This document shows, one piece after another, positions 1,186-64,000 of a stretch of DNA of 64,000 nucleotides; the stretch's first letter is position 1; every line of letters begins with the position of its first letter. Made by a program: the position numbers and the translations under genes. Below the pieces are notes generated by a model, which was given only the letters and a program-made list of their open reading frames with translations, made no database searches and had not been told where the DNA came from. Origin of the DNA: Schmidtea polychroa (lineage: Eukaryota); the NCBI GenBank assembly GCA_044892525.1, contig CM097886.1, positions 17,608,001 through 17,672,000 of the forward strand, in the 5' to 3' direction.

Positions 1186-1976
1186 TAATTAAATGAATTG
1201 TGAATTCCTGAATTACGCATATGCATTTCTAATTGTCCCAAACTGTAGTCGTTTTCTTTGCCCAATTTTCCGCTTACGACATTTAGTCTTTCTTTGTGGT
1301 TATTCATTCATTATTTCTGAACATTGGAAGTATCATTGCAGTAATTGAAGGTTTATTCCACTTCCCTTTAATTTGTAATTTCCAGTTCGAAATGCATAGG
1401 CATAATGGGAATCCGTGCATAATTTGATATCTTTTGTAATTTAGGTTTAGCCAACTATCATTTGTGTTCCATATTGTGATTAATTGAGTGTTGGGCTAAA
1501 TTTCAGAGTGGAGAAAACTGGAGCGAATAGAAAAGTAAACCTCGAATAATAAATAAGATAAAAATATAAAAATCTCACTAGTAAATAGAAAGGAACGATA
1601 AAAAATCAATAAGAGAATAAGATAAGGTAAAACAAACTGAATAAAACCCAATAAATCCCTTAAGATTTAGAAATAAAACGAGTTAAAACACACAACGGAT
1701 AAAATAGAAATAGAATAAGTAAAAAAGTGACAACAAATAAACGAGAAATTTAAGAAATAAATAAAAAATAAACCATTTTAAGTCTAATTAAAACAAAAAA
1801 TAATATTACAATAAAATAACAATAAGTCCGCAGAAAAATAGAAGAGAAAATAATAAAAATAAGAAAAAATAAATAAAATAATAATAAGAATAAGCCAAGC
1901 CATTAAAAAAATTTAATATACGATGATAAAAACATAAAAATAATAATAAATAGTAAAAATACAAACGAGTCGCGTC

Positions 1977-2101
1977 CTGATTGGACAGAAAATAATATAT
2001 AAAGAGCGACAAAAATCTGTAGAGTATCATTCTAACCCGAAACTCTACAGGTAAAAATTCATTTAAAATATTATCAATCATTCTAACCCGAAACTCTACA
2101 G
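1977..2101 (+). promoter_or_regulatory. LTR promoter: reverse CCAAT box, TATA box, Inr, short leader exon with splice donor and a 51-nt intron
   Basis: CTGATTGG 1977-1984, TATATAAAG 1996-2004, TCATTC 2027-2032, CAG|GTAAAA at 2050/2051, CTAAC...TACAG| ending 2101. The same layout is in the E2 LTR. Confidence 0.65.
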
Positions 2102-4406
2102 GACTTCAGGACCACTTAGCAGCTATTAGAACTCGTTTACGAAGCAATCCTACAAAACTACTTACAGCCGATAAGCCATTTTAGACTACTGGTTAAGAGC
2201 CTACGGAAAGTATCGAGAACTTAGACGACTTTATTATTCTATTCGATCCAGTTTTAAACTCAAAGGTATGCATTCGATTGATATTATGAATAGTTATTTG
2301 CTGTAAAAATGTTGAAAATAATGAAAAGCAGAATAAATTTTATTCAATAAATTTAATTTGAAATGAACAGCAGCCTTTTTCTTCATGGTACCGGCCACTG
2401 CACTATCTGGGACCTTCAAGCATGATGCGGCAGAGCGAAAATGCGTTGCGAAAGGGTTTGCGAGTATGCATTGCGACGAAGGGACGATATCAGTCGATTT
2501 TCGAAGTTGAAGAAGAATTGAGGAAATTGTCCAGTACGAAGGGACATGCATCTGAATGGCTCGGAAGACATCATGCTTGGAACCCAGCTGGTGGGGTCGC
2601 CGGGTAAATCTGATTTATTCATTTTATGTGTTTTACAAAATTTTTCCATTAATGTCGGAGTTGATTTTGGAATTGCTTGAATAGAGGAGTTGATCGTCTC
2701 CCATGACGGTGCAAGGACGGCGGCAGAAATGAGTGCCGTTCTTGGGTGGGTCATGAGAGGTGAGGAAACTCCGTGAGTCGAAGTATAGCTGAAGAGTGAA
2801 ATTTCCTTCATCGAGTGCGATCGACCACCGCTATCGTCGAAAATACACTTCTTAAAAGAGTAGTCGCGAAGATGAAATCATGAGAAACTCCAGGAGATCG
2901 TCGAATCAAAATCTTTTCACATTACATCCAGTCGCCGTTAATCGCATTGGAAAGTTAGAGTCCATGTCGTATATCCCTCGGGAAATTGGCACGAGAATAT
3001 CTGGTGATTGGGGATCTATAGCTGCGTAAAAAATCCAATGTTGTTCACAGAGAATGTCATAGAGCCCGAGATCTTCTAGAATACACATCGCCAGGACATT
3101 TACGACGAAACCCATAGTCAGTGTACTTTTGAGTTAGATTGTTGGTTATGAGGCCACTGATAAGCCTAGATTTTCTGAGAATAAAACAAACAAATCACGA
3201 GAAATTATCGGAATATTTACGATCGGCGTTAGAGAAACCGCAGTCGAATTTATCAGAAACTGTCAAACTAATTTCAGACAGATTATTATTCACCGGATTG
3301 TATGACTGAGGAAAACCTGACGAAGAGCGAGAGCGATAATCGTCTCTGCAATAGGTTTAGTGAATGCGTTGATAGAGAGATGTCTAAGAGTTGATAACGA
3401 CTAGAGTAAATCATCAGTTCTGACCCGCTAGTGAATTGTCGCGTAATGATTGGGTGGATACTTCTAACCAATCTCCCAGACAACTGAATCTTGATAATCC
3501 GTCTCATTTACACACTATCGGGAAATTCTTTCTCAGTAGACGGCAATTTATTCTAAATCTTAAATGGTTATGTGACACAATCGTGACGTAACAACGAGGG
3601 AGTTAATCGAGAAAATACTACTGTGTGCACAGGCGAAAGAAAGAGTTCACGCGCGTAAAGGCAGACACCCACTCTTAAACTACCATTCGAAGCAAACACG
3701 TCACCAAAACTGATTCACATGCTAGGGACAAATAACAACACTTTAGTATGCATTGTCATATATTGAATTATGTGCCGCCTTTAAACGAAAGACGATATTT
3801 TAATACAACCACATATTACGCAACGTCGTCATGACAACCTCACGGCGAAAATTTAAATAAAACTAAAAATCATAAGTTAAGTCAATAGGGAACCAAAGAT
3901 ATTCTGCTGTTAATTTTTTCCCTTTTTCCTATTTTATTTTATCTATTTGAACTACTTTAATATAACATAACGAGGTCTATTGAATATCGAATTTTTCTTT
4001 TATAATACTACTCGGTTTAGTTGTGTAGAACGTAGTAATGAGGAGTAAAATCGCAAACATCAGATAATGATAAGTAGAATAAAAGGGTTAGTCTTGTTAG
4101 TACTAGACTGAACAAGCATGAAAAGGGGAATAGTCAAACTCATAACACGTACCGATTGTAAAATGATGACAAATAAATTATGTCTAGAATTTTCGTTTTC
4201 TTCTCGTCAGGTGTTGATGGTTGAGGGGATGAATTTGAATGTTTAAAACTGGATGAATGTGGGTGCCGACTGATAATTTGGGCGTTTGAATCACCACTGA
4301 ATGGTTTGATTTCGAAAAAAGGGAACCTCATATGTAAAAATAGGAATAAAATCCTAGCCAATAAATTTTGTAAAATTAACAATGAAAGATTCTATAAACT
4401 CTTTAG

Positions 4407-5168
4407 ATGAATACCTCTACCAGCTCTGGAAAAAATCTTCGCCCGTGTCTCTTCTGCGCCGATAAAAACGCAGATATCGCGCAGCTCCACTTATACATCG
4501 GGGCACTGAAAAAGAGAATTGATCTCTACGAAGGCACGTGGTTCTCCCCGCCACAAATGCAAGAGGAACGCAAGAAAATTCTCCGATTAGAGCATTGCAG
4601 GGACAGCCTGCTAGAGGAAAGCCGTTGCCAGCGGCTCACTATCAAAGCACAATCGGAAGCCCTCCATAAGGTATATACGGAGGCAGAATTGGCCAAACGG
4701 GTCCGAGAATTTCCCGTCATCGAGAAGACCAATGTCTTCCCACCTCACCATCAGGCCTCCCAATCAACTTCAACAAGCTGCCAAAGGCATGGTACCTATC
4801 TGCCGCCCGTCCCGGCTCCAACCTTATCGAGTTATCAACCCTTGGTCGGTGGACCTACCGATCCCATCTTGGCTCCAATCTTGGTGGCACCAATCGGCAC
4901 CGCGAACGTGGAAAACCCTCCGTCTACTCGCAAACGGAAACGGCCAACTCGAGCCGAGAAGAATAAAAAACGCCGAGATGCGATGGCCGCACTCGAAGCG
5001 TCGCTATCGGTAGCCCAATCCACCATAAAGGAAATCTCTTCCAGCCATTCAATTCCAACGAAGGAAATTTTCCGTGTAATTCCCGCAGAGGGCATCAAAT
5101 ACGTCTCTAACCAACAATTGCCGGTCGACATCGACGAGATGCTTGCCGATGGGGAGTCCTTTGACTGA
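4407..5168 (+). CDS. LTR-encoded 253-aa protein (CxxC, coiled coil, Arg/Lys-rich motif, acidic tail), 5' LTR copy
   Basis: Intact ORF, homologous to the 250-aa E2 LTR ORF (LRPC..C.DKNA, EGTWFSP, EHCRD.L..ESR.QR..I..QSEALHKVY); preceded by TTTAG|ATG. Confidence 0.8.
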   Translation: MNTSTSSGKNLRPCLFCADKNADIAQLHLYIGALKKRIDLYEGTWFSPPQMQEERKKILRLEHCRDSLLEESRCQRLTIKAQSEALHKVYTEAELAKRVREFPVIEKTNVFPPHHQASQSTSTSCQRHGTYLPPVPAPTLSSYQPLVGGPTDPILAPILVAPIGTANVENPPSTRKRKRPTRAEKNKKRRDAMAALEASLSVAQSTIKEISSSHSIPTKEIFRVIPAEGIKYVSNQQLPVDIDEMLADGESFD

Positions 5169-5700
5169 CAGATTTCCATTGCCTTGATTCGGCAAGATTC
5201 GGAAGCGGACTTGAGTGTTTGTGAATATTGAACATTTATTTTTGTGACAGCCCCTTTTCCTTGTTATAAATGTAATTATTGTTGTGGATGTAATATAATT
5301 TTTATTGTCTCTCGGTGATTGTTTTTGGCATGCATGATATGGGATTAAAAGTGAACAATAGGACGATATCAGATATAGGTAGCACTACAGAGTCGTCCCC
5401 TTGGACCAGGGAAGGACCGAATGATGTGTAGAGGAACGGGTAAGACCTTCTACGGCGCCATGGAACCCGAACCGAGACAGGGTTAGGAGTAGTCTTAAGG
5501 CAGAGGCTCACCTGCTAACCTTTTCCGACCCGTGTGAGCAGCACCAACGTGGAACATCACCACGGGCTCATACGTGGGAATATGCATTCGATCATCTGGT
5601 GTATGTATGGGAAGTGCCTGAGCGGAACGATGACGCCTTGTATGAGTGAAGGTTGCGCGTGCATAATTTTTCTCTTCCCCACATACGCCAACATGATTTT

Positions 5701-5723
5701 TGGGGGCTCAGCCGGGATTTGAA
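5701..5723 (+). promoter_or_regulatory. Primer binding site, tRNA-Pro-like
   Basis: TGGGGGCTCAGCCGGGATTTGAA is complementary to a tRNA-Pro-type 3' end (...UUCAAAUCCCGGnnGAGCCC-CCA). It is separated from the LTR end by TGATTTT. Confidence 0.85.
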
Positions 5724-6154
5724 TATTGATTTGTTTGATTGTCTATTTTCGTGTTATGATGTGTTAGATTAACAATTTAATTAATTATGATGGAAATGGA
5801 ATCGGGGCCGAACGAATTATAGTGCAATGAAATGATACGAACTGTCTGAGTTTGAAATAGGGCAAGTGGTGAATGAAACGAACCTAAATGAGTTTGAATG
5901 AATATGATGAAGTATGATGAGAAAAGAAAACGGGAATTAGTTATTGTGGTTAATTTTAACTGGTTAAAATAAAAGGGGGGACGAAAGAAAGTAAGTGATT
6001 AAAGCGAAAAGATGAAAGGGGAATTTCAAGGATCGAATAAAATACAAAAGTTAAAACACTAACACATAAAAGTCAACGAATATTAAATACAAACATAATA
6101 ATATTATTTTTAATACCAGCAGGAACAAAATAATAACAACACATTCATTTAGAT

Positions 6155-6634
6155 ATGTCGGAAGCTAGACAACATCTACAACAGCTAAGCCGGTTCATCG
6201 AAATAGAAAATGATTCAATAAAAACATTAAAGGAAAAACTGAAACAAATAGAACTGTTAGAACAACAAAGCCACAACGCACCGCTGATATCCAAACAAAA
6301 CTTTCTAACCGACAGATTAGGATCAACAAATACCAACACTGACTTGTCTATTCATTATCAATGGCTTCAGCAACGTCTCGACGACCCCGCTCTGAACATC
6401 GAATATGTGAGGATACGCGAACAAGTCAAAACTCTGTCTCAGCGGATACGAACATCAATAGTAGAGAAAGCAGCGGCCTTGAGAACTTGTAACATTTGCA
6501 AGATGCGACCTGTCAAAACTCTGATTCTACCTTGTGGGCACCTTAGCCATTGTGACGAATGCGCCGCCAGTTTAATCCGTTGTTCTATGTGCACATGTGT
6601 AATAAAAGAGAAGCACACAATCTACTTCAGTTAG
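6155..6634 (+). CDS. Coiled-coil plus C-terminal IAP/MDM2-type RING finger protein (159 aa)
   Basis: CNIC...LILPCGH..HCDEC...LIRCSMC..VIKEKHTIYFS at the extreme C-terminus; ortholog in E2 at 60586-61071; no BIR seen. Confidence 0.85.
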   Translation: MSEARQHLQQLSRFIEIENDSIKTLKEKLKQIELLEQQSHNAPLISKQNFLTDRLGSTNTNTDLSIHYQWLQQRLDDPALNIEYVRIREQVKTLSQRIRTSIVEKAAALRTCNICKMRPVKTLILPCGHLSHCDECAASLIRCSMCTCVIKEKHTIYFS

Positions 6635-7227
6635 GTACGCGATCGTCGCTCGGTGAAGGAAATTGGATGATTGACAATTAGACTAAACATTTTGATATTT
6701 TTGTTCTGATTTAATTCGGTAATGTTTTATAATGATAGCATATATTATCTGTAATGTGGAGGAAATAACTAATAAATCCTTTTTGTGTATTCATTTCATT
6801 ATACGAAGTTATAAATTGATTTGTGTTGTTATAATTTTCACCATGAAGAAAGGGCATTTTAAAAATTTAAAATGATTATTTAAAGTGGAACTAGTCCCGT
6901 CATAGGGTTAAAGGGGGAATAAACCGAGCCACCTTCGGGAGGTACGATATTGGAAACCGTTGGGGAAGGGACAACCGATCACCCCGAGTAAGAGATGTAA
7001 GACGAGGTACCATCGCGAATATTGAAAAGTTTCTGCGGTATGGCTGATCACCATACCAATGTAGAAATGGATCAATGCGATCGTTTTGCGTTTTAAGCAA
7101 GGGGGGAAAGGGGAAACATTCCAAAGCGGTACAGATTAGGTCGACAAATAAAAGTAAAAATAGGAAGATGACAGTATAGAATAAAGACAGAAAAGGAACG
7201 GAAGCATGCAGAGTTTAGAGACATTAG

Positions 7228-7667
7228 GGCCGAGCTGTCGAAAAGTCCAGCCGGTCAGGGAAATTGAAACTGAGCTGTGAAAAGTCCAGCCAGTCGGGGA
7301 TAATAAGGCCGAGTTGTTGAATAGTCCAACCGGTCAGGAGAAGAAGATTGAGCTGTTGAATAGTGCCAGCCAGTCGTAAGATCGAGTTGTTGAATAGTCC
7401 AACCGGTCAGGAGAAGAAGATTGAGCTGTTGAATAGTGCCAGCCAGTCGTAAGATCGAGTTGTTGAATAGTCCAACCGGTCAGGAGAAGAAGATTGAGCT
7501 GTTGAATAGTGCCAGCCAGTCGTAAGATCGAGTTGTTGAATAGTCCAACCGGTCAGGAGAAGAAGATTGAGCTGTTGAATAGTGCCAGCCAGTCGTAAGA
7601 TCGAGTTGTTGAATAGTCCAACCGGTCAGGAGAGGAAGATTGAGCTGTTGAATAGTGCCAGCCAGTC
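7228..7667 (+). repeat. Tandem array (73-bp dimeric unit) of 12 bulged stem-loop subunits in the 5' leader
   Basis: GAGCTGTTGAA recurs at 7350, 7423, 7496, 7569 and 7642. Alternating subunits are GATTG-A-GCTG..CAGC-CAGTC and GATCG-A-GTTG..CAAC-CGGTC. Confidence 0.95.
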
Positions 7668-9054
7668 GTAAAGGCCTAAAGTAATAGTGAGATAGCATTT
7701 AAGCTACAATTTGATGACATCTAAATTACTAGTGAGATAGAATATTAAAGCTAGCTAGGAACGAATTGAATTTAAATATGGAAATTTGAATTTAGGGAAG
7801 ATTAAACGAGCTCGTGGAAAGTGATAATAAAACCCCGTTAGTGAGGGAGAAACGGAAAAAGGAAAATGAATCAGGAGATAATAGAAACAAAGAATAAGTA
7901 TGAATAGATGATGAACAAAAGAGGAAATAATTAATTAATTAAAAGGGATCCCAGATAAGTAGACAAAGTTCTACAGAATTTTTTTTGGTTTAAACCGGTT
8001 AAACGAATTTTGTTTTTGGTTCCAGAGTAGAACCGAGTAAAAGGAAACAGAGACGAAAGAGTAAATAAAATAGCGGAACCGCGTAAAAGGATTAAGGAAA
8101 ATATGGGGGGTAATAAGCAGTAACTGACAACGACCTATCGATATTATAAATGCTAACTATAGATAATTTATACGACTATATAGATAATTGTTACTACCCC
8201 AAATAGATAATTTAAAATCGACGAAAAATATGGGTTGATGGGTAATTACACTCCACGAAGAAGTGTATGAGGGGAAATGAAGAGAAGTATAACAGAGGCC
8301 CAAAAACGGTGTCTGTGCTTGAATATGGTAAAAAGGAATGATTGATTCGTGTAAGCAAATGCAACACGATATCATTTTTTCATTGTAGATATCCATCCAA
8401 CCAAGTCAATTCAGAACCAGCTCAAAAGGAATCTAGAGAATATACAAACAACCCAGGAAAAGCAATTCAGAACCCGCACAAAGGAAAAAACAAATCAATC
8501 CAAATACGGAGGACGACAACGACATCTTTATCTACGACGGAATTATCGAAATACTTAGCATCGACGTACTAGCAGAAGTCAATCAAGGACTCAGATATCT
8601 CCTCCGGAAATCAGCCGAGAAATTACGCAGAATATTCCTCGAAGAAAACACTATCAGAACCGAACTCGACCAATTCAGCAGCCGCTAACCGTAGAAAAAC
8701 CCACGTGGAAAGACAGAAAAGAGTAAAAAGAAAATCACGGATAAACCCAACCTTAGATCTTCAAGTAAGCCAGGAGACGTATTATTTTCAAGAGACGAAT
8801 TAGATCAACTCAAAAGAGGACGATCATTTAGGCAGCAGAGAGGAATATCACAAGGAGCAAAAAGACCCCACAAAACACCGATATACGATCAAGAAAACCC
8901 CACAGCCAGACATACGCCCAGTCGATCTAGAAGTAGAGAAAGCCTATCCGATATAACAAACAACCTAACCGGGTCAACAGAAGAATTATCCGTCTATAAT
9001 TTAGCGACATCGCTGGAAAATTTAAAAGAAACAATAGAGTTACAAGAACCAGTC

Positions 9055-23546: not shown

Positions 23547-24935
23547 ATGGATAAGCGACAACGAGAAGAATTCAAAGAAATTGTTGAACAAGTCAGAAAG
23601 TCCACCACAATTCGAATACACAACCATGTAACGTGTGGAATATGCAAGAGCTTATTAAGAGAACCTCACCAAACCAGATGTGGATGCAGAATGTGCAGAG
23701 AATGTGTAGAGGAGATAATAAAGAAGGGACCACAATGGTGCCCAGTATGCAAAGAAACAATGATAACAAGTCTGGGAGATACAAACGAAGATAAAGCAGC
23801 TGTAAAAGATATGTTGAATGCAAACCTAGGATGTAAAAACACCCCATGTAATTGGCGAGGAGTGATATGGGAAGTGAGGCAACATATGGAGCAATGTGAA
23901 TATAAAATCAGTCAATGCAAACGTTGCCAAGAAGAGATTAAAGTCAATGAAGAAGCAGAACATCAAAGTCGATGCGAAGAAAGACTGGAGAAATGTGAGT
24001 ATTGCGGAGAAACCGACACCTGGAAAAAACTAATCAGTCAACATCACAACATACAAGAGGAGAAAGTGTGCGCAGAATTCAGAGGAGAATGCCCCAACAA
24101 ATGCGATAAACCCGGAGTAATAAAACTCGCTCAACATCTAAAAGAATGTGAAAGAAAAAAGATAACGTGTGTGCTAGGAAAATGGGGATGTCAGAAACAA
24201 TTACACCGAGGGGAATTACCCCAACATCTAGCAGAAAACGTATCAACACACGCGGAAATATGGTCAACGGTATTACAAGAAAACGAAAGGAAAACCGAAG
24301 ACTTAGAAAGAGAAATAGTCTCGCTAAAAGCGTTGGTAAAAGAACTATTGGAAGAAAAGGAAGCATTTGAAGAGGCAAGAACAAGTACAAAGATACAGAC
24401 AGATCTAGTAGAAACTAGCAACATTATGGTGAAAGAACTACATCAAAAAGTAAGCGAATTAAACCTCAACGAATTAATACCCACGGCTCCATACATATGG
24501 AAAATAACGGGAGTAAAAGAGAAGATGCAGAGAGCGAGAAATGGAAAGGATACAACATTACTAAGTCCAGCATTCTACTCATGGAAAAACGGGTATAAAA
24601 TGAAAATGAAAGCATACCCCAATGGGGATGGAAGTGCATACGGAACGCATTTCTCAGTATTCTTCTTGATGTGCAAAGGGCTATACGACGAGTTAATAGA
24701 ATGGCCATTCAAAGCAAAAATAGACCTCGCAATGATGAACTATCAAAGTATACATGAACAGAGTTTCCATACAGCGGGAAACCTCGTATGTTACCAAAGG
24801 CCCTTGGAAGAAGAAGGACCAGCAACTGGAGCACCGAATTTCATCCTACAGCGGAAAGTAGAAGACATGACGAGAAACGACACCATATACATAAAAATAG
24901 TGGTGAGGCGAGACGGGAAGAGTAGGACTGAGTAG
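23547..24935 (+). CDS. TRAF-like protein (RING, TRAF zinc fingers, coiled coil, MATH domain), 462 aa
   Basis: N-terminal RING CGIC...EP.QT.CGC..C..C...CPVC; repeated CxxC..H..C fingers; MATH motifs YIWKITG, SPAFYS..NGYKM, YPNGDG..GTH.S.F, EWPF. Confidence 0.92.
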   Translation: MDKRQREEFKEIVEQVRKSTTIRIHNHVTCGICKSLLREPHQTRCGCRMCRECVEEIIKKGPQWCPVCKETMITSLGDTNEDKAAVKDMLNANLGCKNTPCNWRGVIWEVRQHMEQCEYKISQCKRCQEEIKVNEEAEHQSRCEERLEKCEYCGETDTWKKLISQHHNIQEEKVCAEFRGECPNKCDKPGVIKLAQHLKECERKKITCVLGKWGCQKQLHRGELPQHLAENVSTHAEIWSTVLQENERKTEDLEREIVSLKALVKELLEEKEAFEEARTSTKIQTDLVETSNIMVKELHQKVSELNLNELIPTAPYIWKITGVKEKMQRARNGKDTTLLSPAFYSWKNGYKMKMKAYPNGDGSAYGTHFSVFFLMCKGLYDELIEWPFKAKIDLAMMNYQSIHEQSFHTAGNLVCYQRPLEEEGPATGAPNFILQRKVEDMTRNDTIYIKIVVRRDGKSRTE

Positions 24936-26190: not shown

Positions 26191-26362
26191 AGATAAGGAG
26201 AAAAGATAAAAAATATAAAAAGCGGGACCTGTATCCCAACAAAAAAATTATTAGTACGATAAAAATATTTACGGGACTGTAACCCTGATTATATAAAATT
26301 ACCTATAAATGTATAAGTATAAGCCGCACTGTAGCGCACTATTAATTGTAAATATTGTAGAA

Positions 26363-27073
26363 ATGAAAATAGAAGAAATATCCACCATGACCGAGCTAGA
26401 GGAGGGAGAAATCGAAGTTGAGGAAGTGGAGAGGAAGAAAACTATCAAAGAAGAATTACAAGAAGAGAAACAAGAAAACGAAAGATTAGTAGAAAGGTGG
26501 AGAGATAATCGAAAAATGATTAAAGTATTGAAAAGAGAATACACCTTGCTAGAAGAAGTAAAGAAAGAAGTAGAGGAAGAAAATGAATGGCTTCACGAGC
26601 AAAGAAAGCGAGGGAGAAATTGGGAAAAGATCGCGGAAGAATTATGGCAGGAAAGAGCCAGTCTCAAGGCTAATGAAGTGATTGAAGATTACTGGAAAAC
26701 GGAAGCGAGGAAACGACAAGAAACTATCAGGGGTCTAGAAAACCAGCTGGGAGTAAAAGTACAGGAAAGTGCAGAAATGGAGAAATGGATCAATAAATAC
26801 CGAGAAATAGAAATAAAACGGCTGAAACAAAGTCCAAAGACGAACGACCCAGAAGAAAATGATTTCCTACAATTGGAGCTGGAACGGAACTTGGAGGAGA
26901 AAAAGAAGGAGATAAAAACCTTGAAAAGAGAGATAAAACACTTGACGGACAAGGTCCAAGAGAAAGATAGGCAGCTCGAAATGTTGCCGGAACTCCGACA
27001 TAGGGTCATTAAAGCAGAATCTAAATTAATGAGAATCCGAGAAAGAGACCCTAAAAAGAAACGACAAAATTAA
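26363..27073 (+). CDS. Coiled-coil accessory protein (236 aa from MKIEE)
   Basis: Ortholog E2 40266-40964 starts MKIEE, so 26363 is the likely start; shared ENEWLHEQRKRG.NWEKIAEELW. Confidence 0.8.
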   Translation: MKIEEISTMTELEEGEIEVEEVERKKTIKEELQEEKQENERLVERWRDNRKMIKVLKREYTLLEEVKKEVEEENEWLHEQRKRGRNWEKIAEELWQERASLKANEVIEDYWKTEARKRQETIRGLENQLGVKVQESAEMEKWINKYREIEIKRLKQSPKTNDPEENDFLQLELERNLEEKKKEIKTLKREIKHLTDKVQEKDRQLEMLPELRHRVIKAESKLMRIRERDPKKKRQN

Positions 27074-28046: not shown

Positions 28047-31000
28047 TGTTGGGCTAAATTTCAGAGTGGAGAAAACTGGAGCGAATAGAAAAGTAAACCT
28101 CGAATAATAAATAAGATAAAAATATAAAAATCTCACTAGTAAATAGAAAGGAACGATAAAAAATCAATAAGAGAATAAGATAAGGTAAAACAAACTGAAT
28201 AAAACCCAATAAATCCCTTAAGATTTAGAAATAAAACGAGTTAAAACACACAACGGATAAAATAGAAATAGAATAAGTAAAAAAGTGACAACAAATAAAC
28301 GAGAAATTTAAGAAATAAATAAAAAATAAACCATTTTAAGTCTAATTAAAACAAAAAATAATATTACAATAAAATAACAATAAGTCCGCAGAAAAATAGA
28401 AGAGAAAATAATAAAAATAAGAAAAAATAAATAAAATAATAATAAGAATAAGCCAAGCCATTAAAAAAATTTAATATACGATGATAAAAACATAAAAATA
28501 ATAATAAATAGTAAAAATACAAACGAGTCGCGTCCTGATTGGACAGAAAATAATATATAAAGAGCGACAAAAATCTGTAGAGTATCATTCTAACCCGAAA
28601 CTCTACAGGTAAAAATTCATTTAAAATATTATCAATCATTCTAACCCGAAACTCTACAGGACTTCAGGACCACTTAGCAGCTATTAGAACTCGTTTACGA
28701 AGCAATCCTACAAAACTACTTACAGCCGATAAGCCATTTTAGACTACTGGTTAAGAGCCTACGGAAAGTATCGAGAACTTAGACGACTTTATTATTCTAT
28801 TCGATCCAGTTTTAAACTCAAAGGTATGCATTCGATTGATATTATGAATAGTTATTTGCTGTAAAAATGTTGAAAATAATGAAAAGCAGAATAAATTTTA
28901 TTCAATAAATTTAATTTGAAATGAACAGCAGCCTTTTTCTTCATGGTACCGGCCACTGCACTATCTGGGACCTTCAAGCATGATGCGGCAGAGCGAAAAT
29001 GCGTTGCGAAAGGGTTTGCGAGTATGCATTGCGACGAAGGGACGATATCAGTCGATTTTCGAAGTTGAAGAAGAATTGAGGAAATTGTCCAGTACGAAGG
29101 GACATGCATCTGAATGGCTCGGAAGACATCATGCTTGGAACCCAGCTGGTGGGGTCGCCGGGTAAATCTGATTTATTCATTTTATGTGTTTTACAAAATT
29201 TTTCCATTAATGTCGGAGTTGATTTTGGAATTGCTTGAATAGAGGAGTTGATCGTCTCCCATGACGGTGCAAGGACGGCGGCAGAAATGAGTGCCGTTCT
29301 TGGGTGGGTCATGAGAGGTGAGGAAACTCCGTGAGTCGAAGTATAGCTGAAGAGTGAAATTTCCTTCATCGAGTGCGATCGACCACCGCTATCGTCGAAA
29401 ATACACTTCTTAAAAGAGTAGTCGCGAAGATGAAATCATGAGAAACTCCAGGAGATCGTCGAATCAAAATCTTTTCACATTACATCCAGTCGCCGTTAAT
29501 CGCATTGGAAAGTTAGAGTCCATGTCGTATATCCCTCGGGAAATTGGCACGAGAATATCTGGTGATTGGGGATCTATAGCTGCGTAAAAAATCCAATGTT
29601 GTTCACAGAGAATGTCATAGAGCCCGAGATCTTCTAGAATACACATCGCCAGGACATTTACGACGAAACCCATAGTCAGTGTACTTTTGAGTTAGATTGT
29701 TGGTTATGAGGCCACTGATAAGCCTAGATTTTCTGAGAATAAAACAAACAAATCACGAGAAATTATCGGAATATTTACGATCGGCGTTAGAGAAACCGCA
29801 GTCGAATTTATCAGAAACTGTCAAACTAATTTCAGACAGATTATTATTCACCGGATTGTATGACTGAGGAAAACCTGACGAAGAGCGAGAGCGATAATCG
29901 TCTCTGCAATAGGTTTAGTGAATGCGTTGATAGAGAGATGTCTAAGAGTTGATAACGACTAGAGTAAATCATCAGTTCTGACCCGCTAGTGAATTGTCGC
30001 GTAATGATTGGGTGGATACTTCTAACCAATCTCCCAGACAACTGAATCTTGATAATCCGTCTCATTTACACACTATCGGGAAATTCTTTTTCAGTAGACG
30101 GCAATTTATTCTAAATCTTAAATGGTTATGTGACACAATCGTGACGTAACAACGAGGGAGTTAATCGAGAAAATACTACTGTGTGCACAGGCGAAAGAAA
30201 GAGTTCACGCGCGTAAAGGCAGACACCCACTCTTAAACTACCATTCGAAGCAAACACGTCACCAAAACTGATTCACATGCTAGGGACAAATAACAACACT
30301 TTAGTATGCATTTTCATATATTGAATTATGTGCCGCCTTTAAACGAAAGACGATATTTTAATACAACCACATATTACGCAACGTCGTCATGACAACCTCA
30401 CGGCGAAAATTTAAATAAAACTAAAAATCATAAGTTAAGTCAATAGGGAACCAAAGATATTCTGCTGTTAATTTTTTCCCTTTTTCCTATTTTATTTTAT
30501 CTATTTGAACTACTTTAATATAACATAACGAGGTCTATTGAATATCGAATTTTTCTTTTATAATACTACTCGGTTTAGTTGTGTAGAACGTAGTAATGAG
30601 GAGTAAAATCGCAAACATCAGATAATGATAAGTAGAATAAAAGGGTTAGTCTTGTTAGTACTAGACTGAACAAGCATGAAAAGGGGAATAGTCAAACTCA
30701 TAACACGTACCGATTGTAAAATGATGACAAATAAATTATGTCTAGAATTTTCGTTTTCTTCTCGTCAGGTGTTGATGGTTGAGGGGATGAATTTGAATGT
30801 TTAAAACTGGATGAATGTGGGTGCCGACTGATAATTTGGGCGTTTGAATCACTACTGAATGGTTTGATTTCGAAAAAAGGGAACCTCATATGTAAAAATA
30901 GGAATAAAATCCTAGCCAATAAATTTTGTAAAATTAACAATGAAAGATTCTATAAACTCTTTAGATGAATACCTCTACCAGCTCTGGAAAAAATCTTCGC

Positions 31001-32251
31001 CCGTGTCTCTTCTGCGCCGATAAAAACGCAGATATCGCGCAGCTCCACTTATACATCGGGGCACTGAAAAAGAGAATTGATCTCTACGAAGGCACGTGGT
31101 TCTCCCCGCCACAAATGCAAGAGGAACGCAAGAAAATTCTCCGATTAGAGCATTGCAGGGACAGCCTGCTAGAGGAAAGCCGTTGCCAGCGGCTCACTAT
31201 CAAAGCACAATCGGAAGCCCTCCATAAGGTATATACGGAGGCAGAATTGGCCAAACGGGTCCGAGAATTTCCCGTCATCGAGAAGACCAATGTCTTCCCA
31301 CCTCACCATCAGGCCTCCCAATCAACTTCAACAAGCTGCCAAAGGCATGGTACCTATCTGCCGCCCGTCCCGGCTCCAACCTTATCGAGTTATCAACCCT
31401 TGGTCGGTGGACCTACCGATCCCATCTTGGCTCCAATCTTGGTGGCACCAATCGGCACCGCGAACGTGGAAAACCCTCCGTCTACTCGCAAACGGAAACG
31501 GCCAACTCGAGCCGAGAAGAATAAAAAACGCCGAGATGCGATGGCCGCACTCGAAGCGTCGCTATCGGTAGCCCAATCCACCATAAAGGAAATCTCTTCC
31601 AGCCATTCAATTCCAACGAAGGAAATTTTCCGTGTAATTCCCGCAGAGGGCATCAAATACGTCTCTAACCAACAATTGCCGGTCGACATCGACGAGATGC
31701 TTGCCGATGGGGAGTCCTTTGACTGACAGATTTCCATTGCCTTGATTCGGCAAGATTCGGAAGCGGACTTGAGTGTTTGTGAATATTGAACATTTATTTT
31801 TGTGACAGCCCCTTTTCCTTGTTATAAATGTAATTATTGTTGTGGATGTAATATAATTTTTATTGTCTCTCGGTGATTGTTTTTGGCATGCATGATATGG
31901 GATTAAAAGTGAACAATAGGACGATATCAGATATAGGTAGCACTACAGAGTCGTCCCCTTGGACCAGGGAAGGACCGAATGATGTGTAGAGGAACGGGTA
32001 AGACCTTCTACGGCGCCATGGAACCCGAACCGAGACAGGGTTAGGAGTAGTCTTAAGGCAGAGGCTCACCTGCTAACCTTTTCCGACCCGTGTGAGCAGC
32101 ACCAACGTGGAACATCACCACGGGCTCATACGTGGGAATATGCATTCGATCATCTGGTGTATGTATGGGAAGTGCCTGAGCGGAACGATGACGCCTTGTA
32201 TGAGTGAAGGTTGCGCGTGCATAATTTTTCTCTTCCCCACATACGCCAACA
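28047..32251 (+). repeat. E1 3' LTR (4,205 bp)
   Basis: Direct repeat of 1489-5693, followed by the TSD TGAG. Confidence 0.97.
30965..31726 (+). CDS. LTR-encoded 253-aa protein, 3' LTR copy
   Basis: Translation identical to 4407-5168. Confidence 0.8.
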   Translation: MNTSTSSGKNLRPCLFCADKNADIAQLHLYIGALKKRIDLYEGTWFSPPQMQEERKKILRLEHCRDSLLEESRCQRLTIKAQSEALHKVYTEAELAKRVREFPVIEKTNVFPPHHQASQSTSTSCQRHGTYLPPVPAPTLSSYQPLVGGPTDPILAPILVAPIGTANVENPPSTRKRKRPTRAEKNKKRRDAMAALEASLSVAQSTIKEISSSHSIPTKEIFRVIPAEGIKYVSNQQLPVDIDEMLADGESFD

Positions 32252-35178: not shown

Positions 35179-35712
35179 TGTTGGGGTTACACCTCGGCTG
35201 ACCGCTCTACCATATTGACGGGTCTAAGGGTTGATTGTCCATCTCGAATAAAAGGTGCCACCGATTTGTCAACCTGGAGTGAAACCCCACATAACTTTCT
35301 TCCAACATAGTGCCCGTGAATCACTTCACGTTGGTACTGCACTATGCAGGCGAGACACCAGCAAGCAGGTGAGCTTCTGCCTTAAAACTACTCCTTGCTG
35401 AGGCCTCGACTTCCCATTCACGACTGCCGATAGAAGGGCTTACGTCCATTTCCTTACACAACCACTTATCAGGATTCGCTGAACGCAAATTGGGAATTTC
35501 TCACTAGATCCTGCGGGTTCTCTACTCAACCCACTTAATTAAAGTCTAATTATTCATGAACGAAAACGTGTAAGACAACAAGATTTATTAATTTCAACGT
35601 TATGACACAAGGATTCAGCTGTACACTTTACTAATGTTTGTCGAAAGAAGAGAAAACATCATAATCAACATAGATCGGGTCCTTGTTCTTCATCCTGACC
35701 GCCACTGGGGTT

Positions 35713-36465
35713 CTATTGTTTCTCCCATTCAGCGTCGGCGAATAATTCGTCGAGGTTAAAAAACTCGGAAGCGTTCTCTTCCCACGTTACGCCAGCGGCT
35801 GATATGATTCGTGCTGAGGGTCCCGTTGTTAGGTCGATGGACACGTGAGAGTTACCACCGTTGGTTGAATCCTCTATTGATGGGATGTTTGGCTTTGTAG
35901 TGGCGCGTTCGCGCTGTCTCTTCTTGCGCTCTGCACGAGAGAGTTGTTTGCGCTTGGGTTTGCTTGAAGATGCCACTTGCAGAAGGGTGACAGGTACAGA
36001 TGGACTAGCAGTGGGGGGCTTACTGGTACCCGTGATGACAACATCTGGTCGCTTGGGGGACAATTCGTTTTCGACGCAGTCTCGGCACGGTCTCTTGAAC
36101 GGTGGAGATGGATTCGAGGAAAGGTTGTGATGAGGCGGAAAGATGTCATCGGCCTCTCGGATGGGAATCTGCACAATTTTTCGGGTTGTAACCGCCTGCA
36201 TGTAAACCTTATGCAGTGCCTCGGATTGTTCTCTGATTAGACTTCTTTGGGCACGGCTCTCAGATATTAGCGCGTCCCGGCAATGCTCGCTACGATCGAG
36301 CTTCTTTTGGATCTCCTTCATCCGAGCGGGACTAAACCATGTCCCTTCCAGCTCGTCGATTTTTCGTTTATATCGACCGATCTGGGCTTGAAGATCTTTA
36401 ATCACTGCATTTTTATCTGAGCAGGAGAAGCAGGGACGTAGAGCTGATTTGTTGTTTGATAACAT
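35713..36465 (-). CDS. LTR-encoded 250-aa protein, E2 3' LTR copy
   Basis: Homolog of the E1 LTR ORF; TTCTTTAG acceptor 10 nt before the ATG; AATAAA downstream (35584-35589). Confidence 0.8.
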   Translation of the reverse strand: MLSNNKSALRPCFSCSDKNAVIKDLQAQIGRYKRKIDELEGTWFSPARMKEIQKKLDRSEHCRDALISESRAQRSLIREQSEALHKVYMQAVTTRKIVQIPIREADDIFPPHHNLSSNPSPPFKRPCRDCVENELSPKRPDVVITGTSKPPTASPSVPVTLLQVASSSKPKRKQLSRAERKKRQRERATTKPNIPSIEDSTNGGNSHVSIDLTTGPSARIISAAGVTWEENASEFFNLDELFADAEWEKQ

Positions 36466-38870
36466 AATGGATGGCTAAAGAAGAAAACTATGGTGACTAT
36501 ATCTAAAAATTTCGGATCAGATACACGGTTTATCCGCTATTGGATACTTAGTGCTGGAAGAAAACAAGACGAGTCGACGAAACAGGATCCCTCCCTTCAC
36601 CCTTGATTACTAATATTTTACGTATCCTTTACAGAAAATTATTCCCCAACGCCCTGATTGCTTCCCTGACGAATGCAAATTATTTGTAAAAATTTTAATT
36701 TTCGTCTGTCGCGTTCGAGTTGGATTTCTATCTATCGCACATAACGGCAATTGACGGATTGGTTCATGCCGGAGTGAATAAACCTATTTCATTACAAATA
36801 CACTATACTACACTTCGTTTAAATTTCGCTGATTATTTGTTGTTATTCTAATGCAAAATAAGGTTTTTGGACCAAATGCAACTAGTAAAAACTTGCACCC
36901 TTACTTCAAGTAGCGGAATAAGTAACAACTCGTAATTTCGTATAAACTATACGTCACTATTTTATGATTACCCCTTATCCATACCATACGGTGATATCGT
37001 CGTAGAAATATAGCATCGTAAAAATATTGTAATTACATAATAATTTGTTATCGGATTTAGTTTTCTATTACGATACGTCATTTACAGGGAATATGAGAAA
37101 TTTAACTACAATATTACTAGCTATTTTATAACCCAAAAATTCCTGTAGATACTTTAGTTAATTTAAATTTGGCTCGAAGGCTACTACTATGATTTGTAAC
37201 ATCTAATTAGAATTACGATAAACCTCTACAACACTTAGGTAAAACTTCCTATGGTTTAGTTATAAAGTTTGGTTTGAATTTTCGATTATTAATTAAAATA
37301 CCCCTTCAACAATTTCGATTTTTATTTAGCATATTTAATTTAAGCAAAATTATCTTTAATGAGTGCACTTTAGAGAGTCCCTTATCTTAGTAGTCGGTTA
37401 CTGGTTATTTGGCTTATCTTTTTAGTGGTACGAATGGCCTTTATCAGTAGTGAAATTTAAGAGTCAGTCATCTGGAAGTCACATCTCATGTCAGCATTAT
37501 CTAATAGGACCACTGATTACTACTCACACACTAAGAATCCTAGAGAGGGTGACACATGGCGGCATTCCCTGCGGTGAGAGGCACTCGGAATGACTCTGCT
37601 GTTTCTCATGCATATTTCTGACCGGATGACGCTACTCATAGTTATGTTAGCAGCATGTCTGTATGTATGGGTGCCTATTCGATGGAAATTTTATCTGTAA
37701 CTATCAACCGTACTGAGCGAACTGCAAATGTTACATCGCGTGTCGATTCCCATCTGAGCTTATGATGTTGGATTTATTTACTACGACTCGTAATTTCCTC
37801 AATATTGGATGCTTTTGAACGATGGAAGATCTCTACGAACCAGCCAACTAGACTCTATGAAGCATATTTCAGTAGTGGATATTTCGACGCGACAGCATGA
37901 AAATTATTCAATGGGTATTACCAGATTTTGTTAATATATGTGATTGAATATAGTATTATTGTGGTTTTATGCTTTACTTTTCCTTTATTGTAAATTCCTC
38001 ATCATATGCTAAGATTTGGATGTCGCATCTGAAAGAGATGACCTAAATTAGATTTACTTTTTCAAAAATCTACCGAATGCAATTTCAACTTCTCGATATG
38101 TTAGAAAAACCAGCGATGGATGTTTAATGGTATTTTCCCCCACATGGTAAGTTCGGATTTATAGACAGAAGTGGCATGAATGTCTTATAAGACGACTCTG
38201 GACAATACAGAGTTAATATGAGAACTCCCTCAGTCGCTGTGAAGCACATATCCTATTTTCGAAAATTTCATAAGGTTTCCTTTCGGTCTATATTTCGGTA
38301 CTCTGACAGATTTTAAGTCCTTCAGCAATTGGACCCGTGAAGAAGCCTTCACATTTCGGCCCAATCTAGCTGCGTGATTGAAATACTCCATGTCCACCGG
38401 CTGAGCTCCCGAAGGCACCTCACACCATGACATGGAGTATCTCAACGCCACGTTTCTCGTTAATATTAGAAATCATAAAACTATCACTTCAAAATAAATA
38501 TCCATAAAAATTATGTAAGAGTTCACCTGTTACCAATAAATACTTTTAAACATTTAAATTATTTACTTTATCAAAATCGTTATTCAGGATCAAATGAAAA
38601 GAGAGTCTGTTTAAATTTAAAAGTTTAATTGCTCATTAAATATACACATTTACTATTAACTTCGAAAAACAATATCATAAATAAAAATCCCTTACTATGG
38701 AATTAGGCTGAATCGGAAAATTAACGTTAGTCGTTCCAAATTAGTCTGATGATAGTTTGTCGAATGTCGATTGCTGTGACTGAGTTCGAATTGCTGTGAA
38801 GTTTTTCGAATTAACTGTTGCTCTACTTGTATTGCTGATCCTTGAAATAAGTCTCCGTGATTGTAGATGT

Positions 38871-39002
38871 CTATGAAATGCTCGGGGTTAACAGTAAACA
38901 ACAGTAAACATTTTTCTTACCTATGAAATGCTCGGGGTTAACAGTAAATTTAATGTTTTTGGTAGTTGTATATATATCAAATTCTTATTTGTGCGGACCA
39001 AT
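38871..39002 (-). promoter_or_regulatory. E2 LTR promoter with leader exon, donor and 50-nt intron
   Basis: CTGATTGG (CCAAT at 38998-39002), TATATATA ~38969-38977, ATAG|GTAAGA at 38921/38920, acceptor TTTCATAG at 38871. Confidence 0.65.
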
Positions 39003-39568
39003 CAGAGTTGAGTACCGCTTATTTCTATTAATTTAATATAATTTTCTTGTTTTTAGGTTGTTTTTTCCTTATTTTCTTTATTTTTAATATGTTTTTCTAT
39101 TTATTTCCTTAATTTCCTTATTATTTCTTGAATTCCTCTTTATTTATTTGTCAACTTGTTCTATTTTAATCTTTTCTTAATTTTATTTTTTTTTTGTTTT
39201 AATTCTTATGTCTTACTTATTATTTTCCTTATATCTTATTCTATTTTATTTCTGATTTTATTTATTTTATTATTATTTTTCTTAATGTTCTACTTCCCTA
39301 CTTTCCTATTTTTCAACGATTAAATTTTCGACTCAGCCCAACAAATCACTCGGGGACCCATCAAAATTGCGTCCCGCAATTGCATAATTAACTTAATTCA
39401 TTCATTCAAAAAAAATATAACACGAACACGGAAAATTATACAACAATGATAAAAATTTTATTGTAAGATCAAGGTCAAAGCAAGACCAAGCAAGTATCAC
39501 TTAAGGTGATAGTTTGTACATACAATAAAAGTTTCCACATATAATAACACAAATGTTTGAATTAGAGT

Positions 39569-61413: not shown

Positions 61414-64000
61414 TGTTGGGGTTACACCTCGGCTGACCGCTCTACCATATTGACGGGTCTAAGGGTTGATTGTCCATCTCGAATAAAAGGTGCCACCGAT
61501 TTGTCAACCTGGAGTGAAACCCCACATAACTTTCTTCCAACATAGTGCCCGTGAATCACTTCACGTTGGTACTGCACTATGCAGGCGAGACACCAGCAAG
61601 CAGGTGAGCTTCTGCCTTAAAACTACTCCTTGCTGAGGCCTCGACTTCCCATTCACGACTGCCGATAGAAGGGCTTACGTCCATTTCCTTACACAACCAC
61701 TTATCAGGATTCGCTGAACGCAAATTGGGAATTTCTCACTAGATCCTGCGGGTTCTCTACTCAACCCACTTAATTAAAGTCTAATTATTCATGAACGAAA
61801 ACGTGTAAGACAACAAGATTTATTAATTTCAACGTTATGACACAAGGATTCAGCTGTACACTTTACTAATGTTTGTCGAAAGAAGAGAAAACATCATAAT
61901 CAACATAGATCGGGTCCTTGTTCTTCATCCTGACCGCCACTGGGGTTCTATTGTTTCTCCCATTCAGCGTCGGCGAATAATTCGTCGAGGTTAAAAAACT
62001 CGGAAGCGTTCTCTTCCCACGTTACGCCAGCGGCTGATATGATTCGTGCTGAGGGTCCCGTTGTTAGGTCGATGGACACGTGAGAGTTACCACCGTTGGT
62101 TGAATCCTCTATTGATGGGATGTTTGGCTTTGTAGTGGCGCGTTCGCGCTGTCTCTTCTTGCGCTCTGCACGAGAGAGTTGTTTGCGCTTGGGTTTGCTT
62201 GAAGATGCCACTTGCAGAAGGGTGACAGGTACAGATGGACTAGCAGTGGGGGGCTTACTGGTACCCGTGATGACAACATCTGGTCGCTTGGGGGACAATT
62301 CGTTTTCGACGCAGTCTCGGCACGGTCTCTTGAACGGTGGAGATGGATTCGAGGAAAGGTTGTGATGAGGCGGAAAGATGTCATCGGCCTCTCGGATGGG
62401 AATCTGCACAATTTTTCGGGTTGTAACCGCCTGCATGTAAACCTTATGCAGTGCCTCGGATTGTTCTCTGATTAGACTTCTTTGGGCACGGCTCTCAGAT
62501 ATTAGCGCGTCCCGGCAATGCTCGCTACGATCGAGCTTCTTTTGGATCTCCTTCATCCGAGCGGGACTAAACCATGTCCCTTCCAGCTCGTCGATTTTTC
62601 GTTTATATCGACCGATCTGGGCTTGAAGATCTTTAATCACTGCATTTTTATCTGAGCAGGAGAAGCAGGGACGTAGAGCTGATTTGTTGTTTGATAACAT
62701 AATGGATGGCTAAAGAAGAAAACTATGGTGACTATATCTAAAAATTTCGGATCAGATACACGGTTTATCCGCTATTGGATACTTAGTGCTGGAAGAAAAC
62801 AAGACGAGTCGACGAAACAGGATCCCTCCCTTCACCCTTGATTACTAATATTTTACGTATCCTTTACAGAAAATTATTCCCCAACGCCCTGATTGCTTCC
62901 CTGACGAATGCAAATTATTTGTAAAAATTTTAATTTTCGTCTGTCGCGTTCGAGTTGGATTTCTATCTATCGCACATAACGGCAATTGACGGATTGGTTC
63001 ATGCCGGAGTGAATAAACCTATTTCATTACAAATACACTATACTACACTTCGTTTAAATTTCGCTGATTATTTGTTGTTATTCTAATGCAAAATAAGGTT
63101 TTTGGACCAAATGCAACTAGTAAAAACTTGCACCCTTACTTCAAGTAGCGGAATAAGTAACAACTCGTAATTTCGTATAAACTATACGTCACTATTTTAT
63201 GATTACCCCTTATCCATACCATACGGTGATATCGTCGTAGAAATATAGCATCGTAAAAATATTGTAATTACATAATAATTTGTTATCGGATTTAGTTTTC
63301 TATTACGATACGTCATTTACAGGGAATATGAGAAATTTAACTACAATATTACTAGCTATTTTATAACCCAAAAATTCCTGTAGATACTTTAGTTAATTTA
63401 AATTTGGCTCGAAGGCTACTACTATGATTTGTAACATCTAATTAGAATTACGATAAACCTCTACAACACTTAGGTAAAACTTCCTATGGTTTAGTTATAA
63501 AGTTTGGTTTGAATTTTCGATTATTAATTAAAATACCCCTTCAACAATTTCGATTTTTATTTAGCATATTTAATTTAAGCAAAATTATCTTTAATGAGTG
63601 CACTTTAGAGAGTCCCTTATCTTAGTAGTCGGTTACTGGTTATTTGGCTTATCTTTTTAGTGGTACGAATGGCCTTTATCAGTAGTGAAATTTAAGAGTC
63701 AGTCATCTGGAAGTCACATCTCATGTCAGCATTATCTAATAGGACCACTGATTACTACTCACACACTAAGAATCCTAGAGAGGGTGACACATGGCGGCAT
63801 TCCCTGCGGTGAGAGGCACTCGGAATGACTCTGCTGTTTCTCATGCATATTTCTGACCGGATGACGCTACTCATAGTTATGTTAGCAGCATGTCTGTATG
63901 TATGGGTGCCTATTCGATGGAAATTTTATCTGTAACTATCAACCGTACTGAGCGAACTGCAAATGTTACATCGCGTGTCGATTCCCATCTGAGCTTATGA
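61414..64000 (-). repeat. E2 5' LTR (partial)
   Basis: Matches 35179-37765 with no difference spotted by eye. Confidence 0.95.
61948..62700 (-). CDS. LTR-encoded 250-aa protein, E2 5' LTR copy
   Basis: Translation identical to 35713-36465. Confidence 0.8.
   Translation of the reverse strand: MLSNNKSALRPCFSCSDKNAVIKDLQAQIGRYKRKIDELEGTWFSPARMKEIQKKLDRSEHCRDALISESRAQRSLIREQSEALHKVYMQAVTTRKIVQIPIREADDIFPPHHNLSSNPSPPFKRPCRDCVENELSPKRPDVVITGTSKPPTASPSVPVTLLQVASSSKPKRKQLSRAERKKRQRERATTKPNIPSIEDSTNGGNSHVSIDLTTGPSARIISAAGVTWEENASEFFNLDELFADAEWEKQ

Follow-up and report, generated by a model that had tools for sequence, protein, structure and literature searches.

A gene within the long terminal repeat of giant Burro-like elements of Schmidtea polychroa and its possible role as an RNA regulator

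An open reading frame (ORF) of about 250 codons inside a long terminal repeat (LTR) raises the question of whether it is a gene, how a transcript that begins in the same LTR could come to encode it, and what its product might do for the element that carries it. A first-pass annotation had proposed a nuclear regulator of the Rev/Rex or Tas/Tax kind, possibly partnering an array of RNA hairpins. The window, the whole 64,000-nt stretch of DNA that we analysed, holds two young, env-bearing, Burro-like gypsy elements arranged tail to tail, E1 (+) and E2 (−). E1 spans 1489-32251 (+), or 30,763 bp; its LTRs differ from each other by 3 mismatches, and both elements are flanked by a 4-bp target-site duplication (TSD). 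Their landmarks are as follows.

1489..5693, +: 5' LTR of E1, 4205 bp, TG...CA, 4-bp TSD
28047..32251, +: 3' LTR of E1, also 4205 bp, with an identical ORF copy at 30965-31726
35179..39343, −: 3' LTR of E2, with a 250-aa ORF at 35713-36465 and the same leader layout as E1
61414..64000, continuing beyond the window end, −: 5' LTR of E2, with the ORF at 61948-62700
5701..5718, +: primer-binding site (PBS) of E1, recognised by sequence, which we take to be tRNA-Pro-like

Pfam matches to the polyprotein comprise gag, CCHC knuckles, a Monjiviricetes-type fusion protein, PR, RT, RNase H, integrase and ankyrins; in the 4136-aa polyprotein of E2, env lies in frame between gag and PR-RT-RH-IN, and a Bcl-2 match is weak (E 0.065). 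A length of ~30 kb, multi-kb LTRs, the TSD, the PBS and the order of the env, Bcl-2-like and ankyrin parts place both elements among the Burro-like giant gypsy elements. They lack the trait specific to Burro1/GYPSM1, a MATH domain inside the polyprotein: RING and TRAF/MATH are separate genes, and the TRAF/MATH ORF lies outside the polyprotein at 23547-24935. The polyprotein frame is broken once in each element relative to the other, in E1 at 14884-14886 inside env and in E2 at 45820 near the C-terminal end. An open frame of ~110 codons without an ATG stands upstream of, and in frame with, the gag ATG (~8690-9054; in E2 ~58231-58560, −). It is conserved in both elements and contains a GTAAG site; it is possibly a non-AUG start or a spliced N-terminal extension. 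Upstream of E1, positions 96-1050 hold a broken transposase remnant, presumably of the pogo/DDE-like family.

The two elements do not differ evenly along their length. Amino acid identity is 90% in pol, 43% in the RING genes and 37% in the LTR ORF proteins, and because of this contrast the LTR-RING module appears to be far older than the backbone. At the DNA level (1489-6700 contrasted with 6914-27450) the backbone is ~80% identical, whereas the LTR-plus-RING modules are very old and cannot be aligned. A shared backbone combined with divergent LTR-RING modules would be read as cassette exchange between element lineages. Elsewhere in the genome searched, a 781-Mb assembly with four large contigs, some ORF copies lie 11-14 kb apart and not ~26 kb (C4:12790027, 12801167 and 12812307; C2:151133516 and 151147334); these would be internally deleted or tandem elements, possibly derived from spliced RNAs.

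The LTR ORF itself is the following feature, identified by its frame, BLASTP, genome copies and dN/dS.

4407..5168, +: LTR ORF, 253 aa, terminal exon

As had been suggested, both LTR types hold such an ORF, of 253 aa in E1 and 250 aa in E2, and BLASTP aligns the two products at 37% identity over 254 columns (E 5e-48). The LTRs around them are mostly unalignable: their DNA is alike only in A-rich patches of U3, over 38-44 nt within the ORF and in a single motif of 32 nt in the tail. A common N-terminal block was seen as well, and its length of ~105-117 aa (51% in tblastx) slightly exceeds the ~90 aa first given. In pairwise counts among 39 aligned ORFs, dN/dS ranged from 0.068 to 0.185 in all 7 within-type pairs given, which is not near 1 (E1 against E2 was saturated), and fell to 0.005-0.048 in the core (aa 11-103) where it could be estimated. 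Selection on the ORF was significant in the 4 pairs tested (Fisher p <= 1e-21). As a control, a 131-aa antisense ORF at 2416-2811 (−) in the E1 LTR was kept whole in 0 of 80 other loci. Judged by this pattern of substitution, the LTR ORF is a protein-coding gene under strong purifying selection.

Searches of the genome returned ~6,700-7,100 first-look candidates, and stops were present in 9, 2 and 7 of the best 150 scored, a selection that is biased to intact copies and does not give copy numbers. With distant relatives as queries, at least five ORF families and a decayed older lineage were recovered. A profile built from 20 copies found 17 distant relatives at E <= 0.001 among 1.84 billion proteins. 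Since the host part of one of them (P0002) is 74-92% identical to this genome, the distant relatives appear to come from a related species. Nearly all 17 (P0001-P0017) are public gene models in which the LTR exon is glued to unrelated host domains, and such chimeric models would mislead studies of domain fusion. Among 38 LTRs with both ends found, which had been chosen by protein match, 22 were solo, flanked by a TSD and uninterrupted in the ORF for at least 240 aa.

How this gene could be expressed was read from the organisation of the LTR upstream of it, in which we distinguish the following features.

1974..2002, +: putative promoter, with a reverse CCAAT box at 1974-1986 and a TATA box at 1996-2002, at fixed spacing in 55 of 81 loci
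2026..2050, +: exon 1, 25 nt, no AUG; probable start site at 2026, the left edge of the leader duplication
2051..2101, +: intron 1, GT...AG, 51 nt, ending in a perfect 25-nt repeat of exon 1 (2077-2101)
2102..2265, +: exon 2, a non-coding leader ending at splice donor 2 (2265/2266), a donor used in loci L036 and L119
2266..4406, +: long intron of the ORF mRNA, with an acceptor YAG immediately 5' of the ATG; exactly absent in L119
2332..2370, +: poly(A) signal 1, AATAAA at 2332 and 2346, inside the short intron 2; probable end of R
5292..5297, +: putative poly(A) signal 2, a non-canonical hexamer conserved after the ORF stop

The left edge of the leader repeat falls 24-31 nt past the TATA box in 19 of 21 distinct units. 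Exon 2 is poor in ATG, with 18 observed against 58.6 expected in 31 representatives. Splicing has left fossils in the genome. In the L119 LTR, exon 2 is joined exactly to the ORF ATG, where its relatives have a GT...AG intron of 2.1-2.2 kb; the copy also lacks intron 1, and its reading frame is broken near the 3' end. It was the sole processed exon 2-ORF copy in pattern searches of the genome, and through it alone, as a genomic fossil, the multiply spliced mRNA that marks Rev-like proteins is documented here. In the L036 element, a 105-nt GT...AG stretch after exon 2 (intron 2) is exactly missing from both LTRs. Splicing thus connects a non-coding leader of two exons to the ORF, through an acceptor at the ATG.

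Other copies support the position of the acceptor. Of 37 E1-type copies, 34 have a YAG that abuts the ATG; among the 14 E2-type copies with an ATG, a YAG precedes it by 3-9 nt in 13. The copies were assigned to families by rough motifs, and about five are misbinned. Two further candidates for processed copies, L121 and L123, have no promoter upstream and were read as natural acceptors, and a 609-nt deletion in L058 is not bounded by GT-AG and was rejected as a removed intron. The idea that a trans-spliced leader is needed to supply the AUG was also set aside, as acceptor-to-ATG distances are not all in frame. Contigs from four sequencing runs (88% likeness) contained no joint at the predicted splice sites and are uninformative either way.

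Next, we consider where the transcripts would end. An AATAAA occurs 260-390 nt past the start site in 25 of 31 representatives against 6.4 expected, followed by a U-rich tract; E2 has ATTAAA there. A set of hexamers, picked after viewing, occurs 120-180 nt past the stop in 17 of 22 representatives against 5.2 expected. The representatives are related to each other, so that these counts, like that of ATG in exon 2, are not independent. Both signals named by the first-pass annotation, AATAAA at 2332/2346 and TATAAA at 5265, are present; the conserved signal after the stop, however, is the one at 5292 and not that at 5265. As the annotation had held, the ORF lies downstream of the start site: the TATA box, exon 1 and exon 2 are all upstream of it, and it begins 2381 nt after the start. 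Because the start lies at ~2026, the upstream poly(A) signal at ~2346 and a second one after the stop, the ORF is most likely situated in a U5 of 3.3 kb that follows an R of ~340 nt, rather than in a long R. A U5 location with a poly(A) signal of its own would make every LTR, solo LTRs included, a complete expression unit. The arrangement recurs further downstream. In both elements, a YAG precedes an ATG by 2-6 nt at the RING ORF, the TRAF ORF and each of the two coiled-coil ORFs (6155, 23547, 25153, 26309-26370), and most downstream accessory ORFs are followed by their own poly(A) hexamer. By these signals the element resembles a nested series of alternative last exons, of which the LTR ORF is the first.

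The duplication of exon 1 bears on how such an element could keep an intron through reverse transcription. Exon 1 forms a perfect direct repeat in 45 of 55 promoters, with a period of 45-51 nt, a donor GTAAA or GTAAG, and an end at AG/GT in 42 of the 45; the remaining 10 promoters carry a single copy. The repeat is perfect within each LTR, while its 21 units across subfamilies have a mean identity of only 0.45, and its edges are fixed at the start site and the donor. The duplication would give the start site to the base. If splicing of genomic RNA were confined to its 5' end, exon-1 copy 2 in the 3' LTR would be where the minus-strand cDNA anneals; strand transfer on copy 2 would then rebuild intron 1 in each cycle and overwrite copy 2 with copy 1. 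In favour of this scheme, L036 lost intron 2 and retained intron 1 in both LTRs. The nucleotide before copy 2 is a G in 6 of 21 units, compared with 7% G in the spacers, which is suggestive of the G expected from copying of the cap. Against it, the 10 single-copy promoters could also have come from slippage between repeats; set against that point, the second copy in L050 is missing from both LTRs. A search of openly accessible literature returned no description of an intron that strand transfer rebuilds. The duplicated exon 1 would provide a testable answer to how a reverse-transcribed element keeps a spliced intron.

We then asked what the sequence and predicted fold of the protein imply about its function. 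Its conserved parts correspond to three segments of the ORF.

4437..4751, +: conserved core, aa 11-115, with a CxxC, helix 15-42, a TW-x-x-P turn, helix 48-101 and P-x-HH (AlphaFold2, dN/dS, relatives)
4929..4976, +: Arg/Lys-rich segment, aa 175-190, in which the predicted helix 182-213 starts (alignment, prediction)
5124..5147, +: acidic-hydrophobic tail motif, aa 240-247, hydrophobic-x-x-hydrophobic-hydrophobic in a predicted short helix (alignment, prediction)

AlphaFold2, run with 20 and 40 sequences, predicted helices at 15-42, 48-101 and 182-213 and a short one at 242-247, the remainder being of low confidence; pLDDT was 74-94 over aa 21-100, and overall pTM was 0.31-0.33. The single folded part of the model would be a long helical hairpin. 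The TW-x-x-P turn, Arg, Glu and Gln residues of helix 2 and the P-x-HH are near-invariant, and this core is the part matched by the distant relatives. The CxxC that had been counted among the shared N-terminal features does not belong to it: it is present in 61 of 71 intact copies here and in 0 of 16 anchored distant relatives, which argues against zinc binding as the basis of the core. By contrast, the Arg/Lys-rich segment and the acidic-hydrophobic end exist in both ORFs as originally quoted. All families carry the basic segment, with 8-10 K+R in 18 aa. It is richer in Arg in the relatives from the other species (6-10 Arg in 14 aa in 9 of 17), and an arginine-rich motif (ARM) of the kind found in Rev-like proteins is therefore present. 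The segment runs into an amphipathic helix in four of five families; the E2 type has no helix after it. All five families retain the tail motif, the tail having a net charge of −3 to −7 and 3-7 W/F/Y/L in most examples given. Classical nuclear export signals (NES) are not conserved: of 71 intact copies, 7 have such a pattern within their final 45 aa, and no NES class was common to the families outside the hairpin in the same 71 copies, atypical signals lying beyond these patterns. A V/I-x-I-D-L-T motif, which we take to be SUMO-interaction-like, occurs in 13 of 16 E2-type copies and in P0002 and P0004, and in none of 37 E1-type copies.

None of the searches placed the protein in a known family. 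Pfam had no family for either window protein, the best shared matches being generic coiled coils, and REV was absent from the 25 Pfam families listed for 40 aligned members. One distant relative matched REV at E 0.0013, below the cut-off and likely for compositional reasons. A word search of 5.8 billion proteins, covering near lengths only, returned no match; the ESM Atlas gave only unnamed clusters at 0.86-0.88; and sequences of solved structures gave none, except that one search matched the host furin part of a chimeric relative. Foldseek found nothing at E <= 0.001 among PDB and viral structures, and the matches of a VIA structure search were generic helical hairpins, with a best Z of 9.8. 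Sequence, profile and structure searches thus detected no homology to Rev, Rex, Tas or Tax, nor did Pfam to Rec or Rem. CERV, the accessory protein of Cer1, was not among the 17 relatives of the profile search, judged by length and content. A bZIP reading was rejected, as the E2 type has no zipper and no family matched. By these comparisons the LTR ORF protein would form a new family without a known fold match, which departs from Rev in its NES and homology and from Tas in position. The proposal of a nuclear nucleic-acid-binding regulator consequently holds for the sequence layout, which fits, and not for kinship with Rev/Rex/Tas/Tax.

If the protein acts on RNA, the element offers two candidate partners.

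5437..5577, +: conserved structured RNA in the LTR tail, with stems at 5473-5527 and 5529-5577 and a GTAAG donor-like site at 5440 (covariation)
7225..7680, +: array of 73-nt hairpins between the PBS and gag (sequence, folding)

The LTR tail is the best-conserved DNA between the LTR types, and its motif was found in 65 of 81 loci. In an alignment of 29 sequences, obtained by removing 4 visibly incomplete copies and collapsing similar ones, its fold has 52 pairs; 88% of cells were paired, compared with 31-49% when the alignment was slid, and two-sided changes were seen in 31 of the 52 pairs, compared with 14-21. Two stems with invariant internal loops are kept in all families. Single-sequence folding z-scores are weak (+0.7 to −2.6), and no Rfam family matched up to E 5. 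Because the structure lies beyond poly(A) signal 2 and the donor-like site, only genome-length RNA would keep it. It also lies 120-260 nt before the PBS, where structures for primer placement, dimerisation or packaging are expected; it could be a response element or a ribozyme, and a part in priming or packaging is just as plausible. The hairpin array, which had been put forward as the partner, folds with z of −2.8 and −3.1 in E1 and −1.4 in E2. It now appears the weaker candidate: it is 84-95% identical between the elements while the LTR proteins are 37% identical, and its position between the PBS and gag is the usual one for packaging signals. For the array, packaging is the simpler reading.

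We consider the LTR ORF to be best explained as the first accessory gene of a Burro-like element. The reading that we favour for its product, though we would put it at a little under an even chance, is a Rev- or CERV-like regulator of RNA that acts on the U5 structure at 5473-5577 and not on the hairpin array. The LTR promoter would yield a fully spliced early mRNA consisting of exon 1, exon 2 and the ORF and ending at poly(A) site 2, whether the LTR is a 5', a 3' or a solo one. The protein might then oligomerise through its helical hairpin and enter the nucleus; its Arg-rich helix might bind element RNA, most plausibly the structured U5 tail, and its acidic-hydrophobic tail might recruit a host factor. 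The 30-kb intron-retaining RNA could thereby escape internal acceptors and poly(A) sites and be completed or exported, an action like that of Rev/Rex/Rec or CERV without kinship to them. Such a switch at the RNA level is favoured because of the many acceptors and poly(A) sites in the 30-kb RNA, the position of the ORF on the most-spliced message, the order of predicted coiled coil, ARM and tail, and the precedent of CERV. Rev-like proteins combine a coiled coil, an Arg-rich motif and a C-terminal hydrophobic motif in the same order (PMC5568270). Against the switch, the known Rev response elements described there lie in env or near U3 and not in U5; an NES pattern is found in the tail of 7 of 71 copies only, and the tail fits an acidic activation motif equally well; the REV score is sub-threshold, single-sequence folding is weak, and there is one processed copy alone. 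The wider proposal is more doubtful as a whole: that the LTR is an autonomous gene, present in thousands of copies of which many are solo LTRs, that doses the host with an RNA regulator of the 30-kb genome acting through U5 RNA, and that its leader intron is rebuilt in each cycle.

The same tail and basic segment would suit a Tas/Tax/Tat-like activator, which would contact U3 DNA or the nascent leader through its basic helix and boost the LTR promoter through its acidic tail. We hold this to be somewhat unlikely. The tail is acidic with a hydrophobic-x-x-hydrophobic-hydrophobic core, which we take to resemble VP16-type motifs, although the tail is only modestly acidic; the continuation of the basic segment into an amphipathic helix in four of five families would fit, although the E2 type lacks that helix and neither bZIP nor another DNA-binding family matched. 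In foamy Tas, a central part binds DNA and the acidic activation domain is C-terminal (PMC8339588), and foamy LTRs likewise have a leader with a donor upstream of the poly(A) signal (PMC3694450). In 55 LTRs, no promoter of one type (E1 or E2) was combined with an ORF of the other; this matching could, however, follow from the homology that strand transfer requires, and within a type U3 reassorts freely against the ORF (Spearman 0.06-0.10), with exon 1 in 21 variants. Segment-wise identity did not separate a U3-linked from an RNA-linked function. It is distinctly unlikely that the protein is instead a host-directed modulator, an antagonist of PIWI/SUMO silencing or a cell-survival factor, retained in the LTR since thousands of solo LTRs raise its dose. 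The SUMO-interaction-like motif of 13 of 16 E2-type copies and P0002/P0004 would point that way, but it is in 0 of 37 E1-type copies; the other cargo (RING, TRAF/MATH, Bcl-2-like, ankyrin) is host-directed, and Burro elements are silenced by SMEDWI-2 (PMC8532177), yet nothing ties this protein to a host target, and its Arg-rich helix would then be only a nuclear localisation signal (NLS). A structural RNA chaperone or particle component, which would assist reverse transcription of the very long (3.7-kb) R-U5, seems improbable to us. R-U5 is unusually long here, and a coiled coil with an ARM is the RNP-forming layout of ZfL2-1 ORF1p (PMC3905857), but gag already has CCHC knuckles, the conserved tail suggests a host partner, and early spliced expression fits a regulator better. 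That the ORF has no function and is merely carried along with the LTR would agree with the lack of a spliced read in RNA runs that are themselves uninformative; it is largely refuted by dN/dS of 0.07-0.19 (core 0.005-0.05), conservation across five families and another species, the existence of a processed copy and the decay of the neighbouring antisense ORF, and we give it hardly any weight.

If the RNA regulator that we favour, or any other product, is made from the LTR, solo LTRs, which are usually treated as relics of promoters, become protein-coding units. The elements are abundant and PIWI-controlled in a model animal, and knock-down of PIWI is expected to induce the ORF. In the literature searched, no sense gene is described downstream of the start site inside an LTR; the search, which covered openly accessible papers, found nothing on a Burro LTR ORF or a sense gene in U5, and figures may show the ORF unannotated. 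Regulators in the style of complex retroviruses appear to be known from few LTR retrotransposons, CERV being the tested case.

The closest known systems resemble the LTR ORF in part. E1 and E2 share with Burro/GYPSM1, planarian elements whose giant gypsy-like layout is described in PMC6431247, a length of ~30 kb, long LTRs, a gag-Bcl2-like-env-PR-RT-RH-IN-ankyrin polyprotein and accessory RING and TRAF/MATH genes. Unlike Burro1 (MATH in the polyprotein) and the D. tigrina element (upstream), E1 and E2 have the MATH/TRAF ORF downstream of pol. The text of that source mentions no LTR ORF, leader splicing or U5 RNA structure for Burro; the ORF may be drawn in published figures. CERV, from the C. 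elegans element Cer1, is a gypsy accessory protein made from a spliced mRNA, which is nuclear and needed for export of unspliced RNA (PMC10309623). It resembles the present protein in its spliced mRNA and helix-hairpin/zipper part, whereas NLS and nuclear site are features of CERV; it differs in its 517 aa, its overlap with gag, its M and G domains and Cys loop, its position outside the LTR and a function that has been demonstrated. Compared by description only, its H-M-G layout contrasts with the one folded part predicted here. With Rev, Rex, Rec and Rem the LTR ORF shares a multiply spliced mRNA, an Arg-rich motif and a hydrophobic motif C-terminal of it, and its predicted helical hairpin may correspond to their coiled coil. 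It differs from them in having no sequence or fold homology and no conserved classical NES, and in a gene wholly within the LTR past the start site; compared with Rev response elements, the candidate RNA element here lies in U5. Foamy Tas/Bel1 and the foamy LTR leader resemble it in a basic segment followed by an acidic tail and in a splice donor that precedes the poly(A) signal of R. Tas, however, is encoded between env and the 3' LTR and has an internal promoter, while the LTR ORF is inside the LTR and has no recognisable DNA-binding domain. Coding sequence within LTR DNA is familiar from nef, MMTV sag and bel2 in U3 and from antisense HBZ; these lie in U3 or on the opposite strand, and their transcripts come from elsewhere. 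Unlike them, the LTR ORF is in sense orientation and downstream of its own promoter, and a solo LTR would contain the whole gene.
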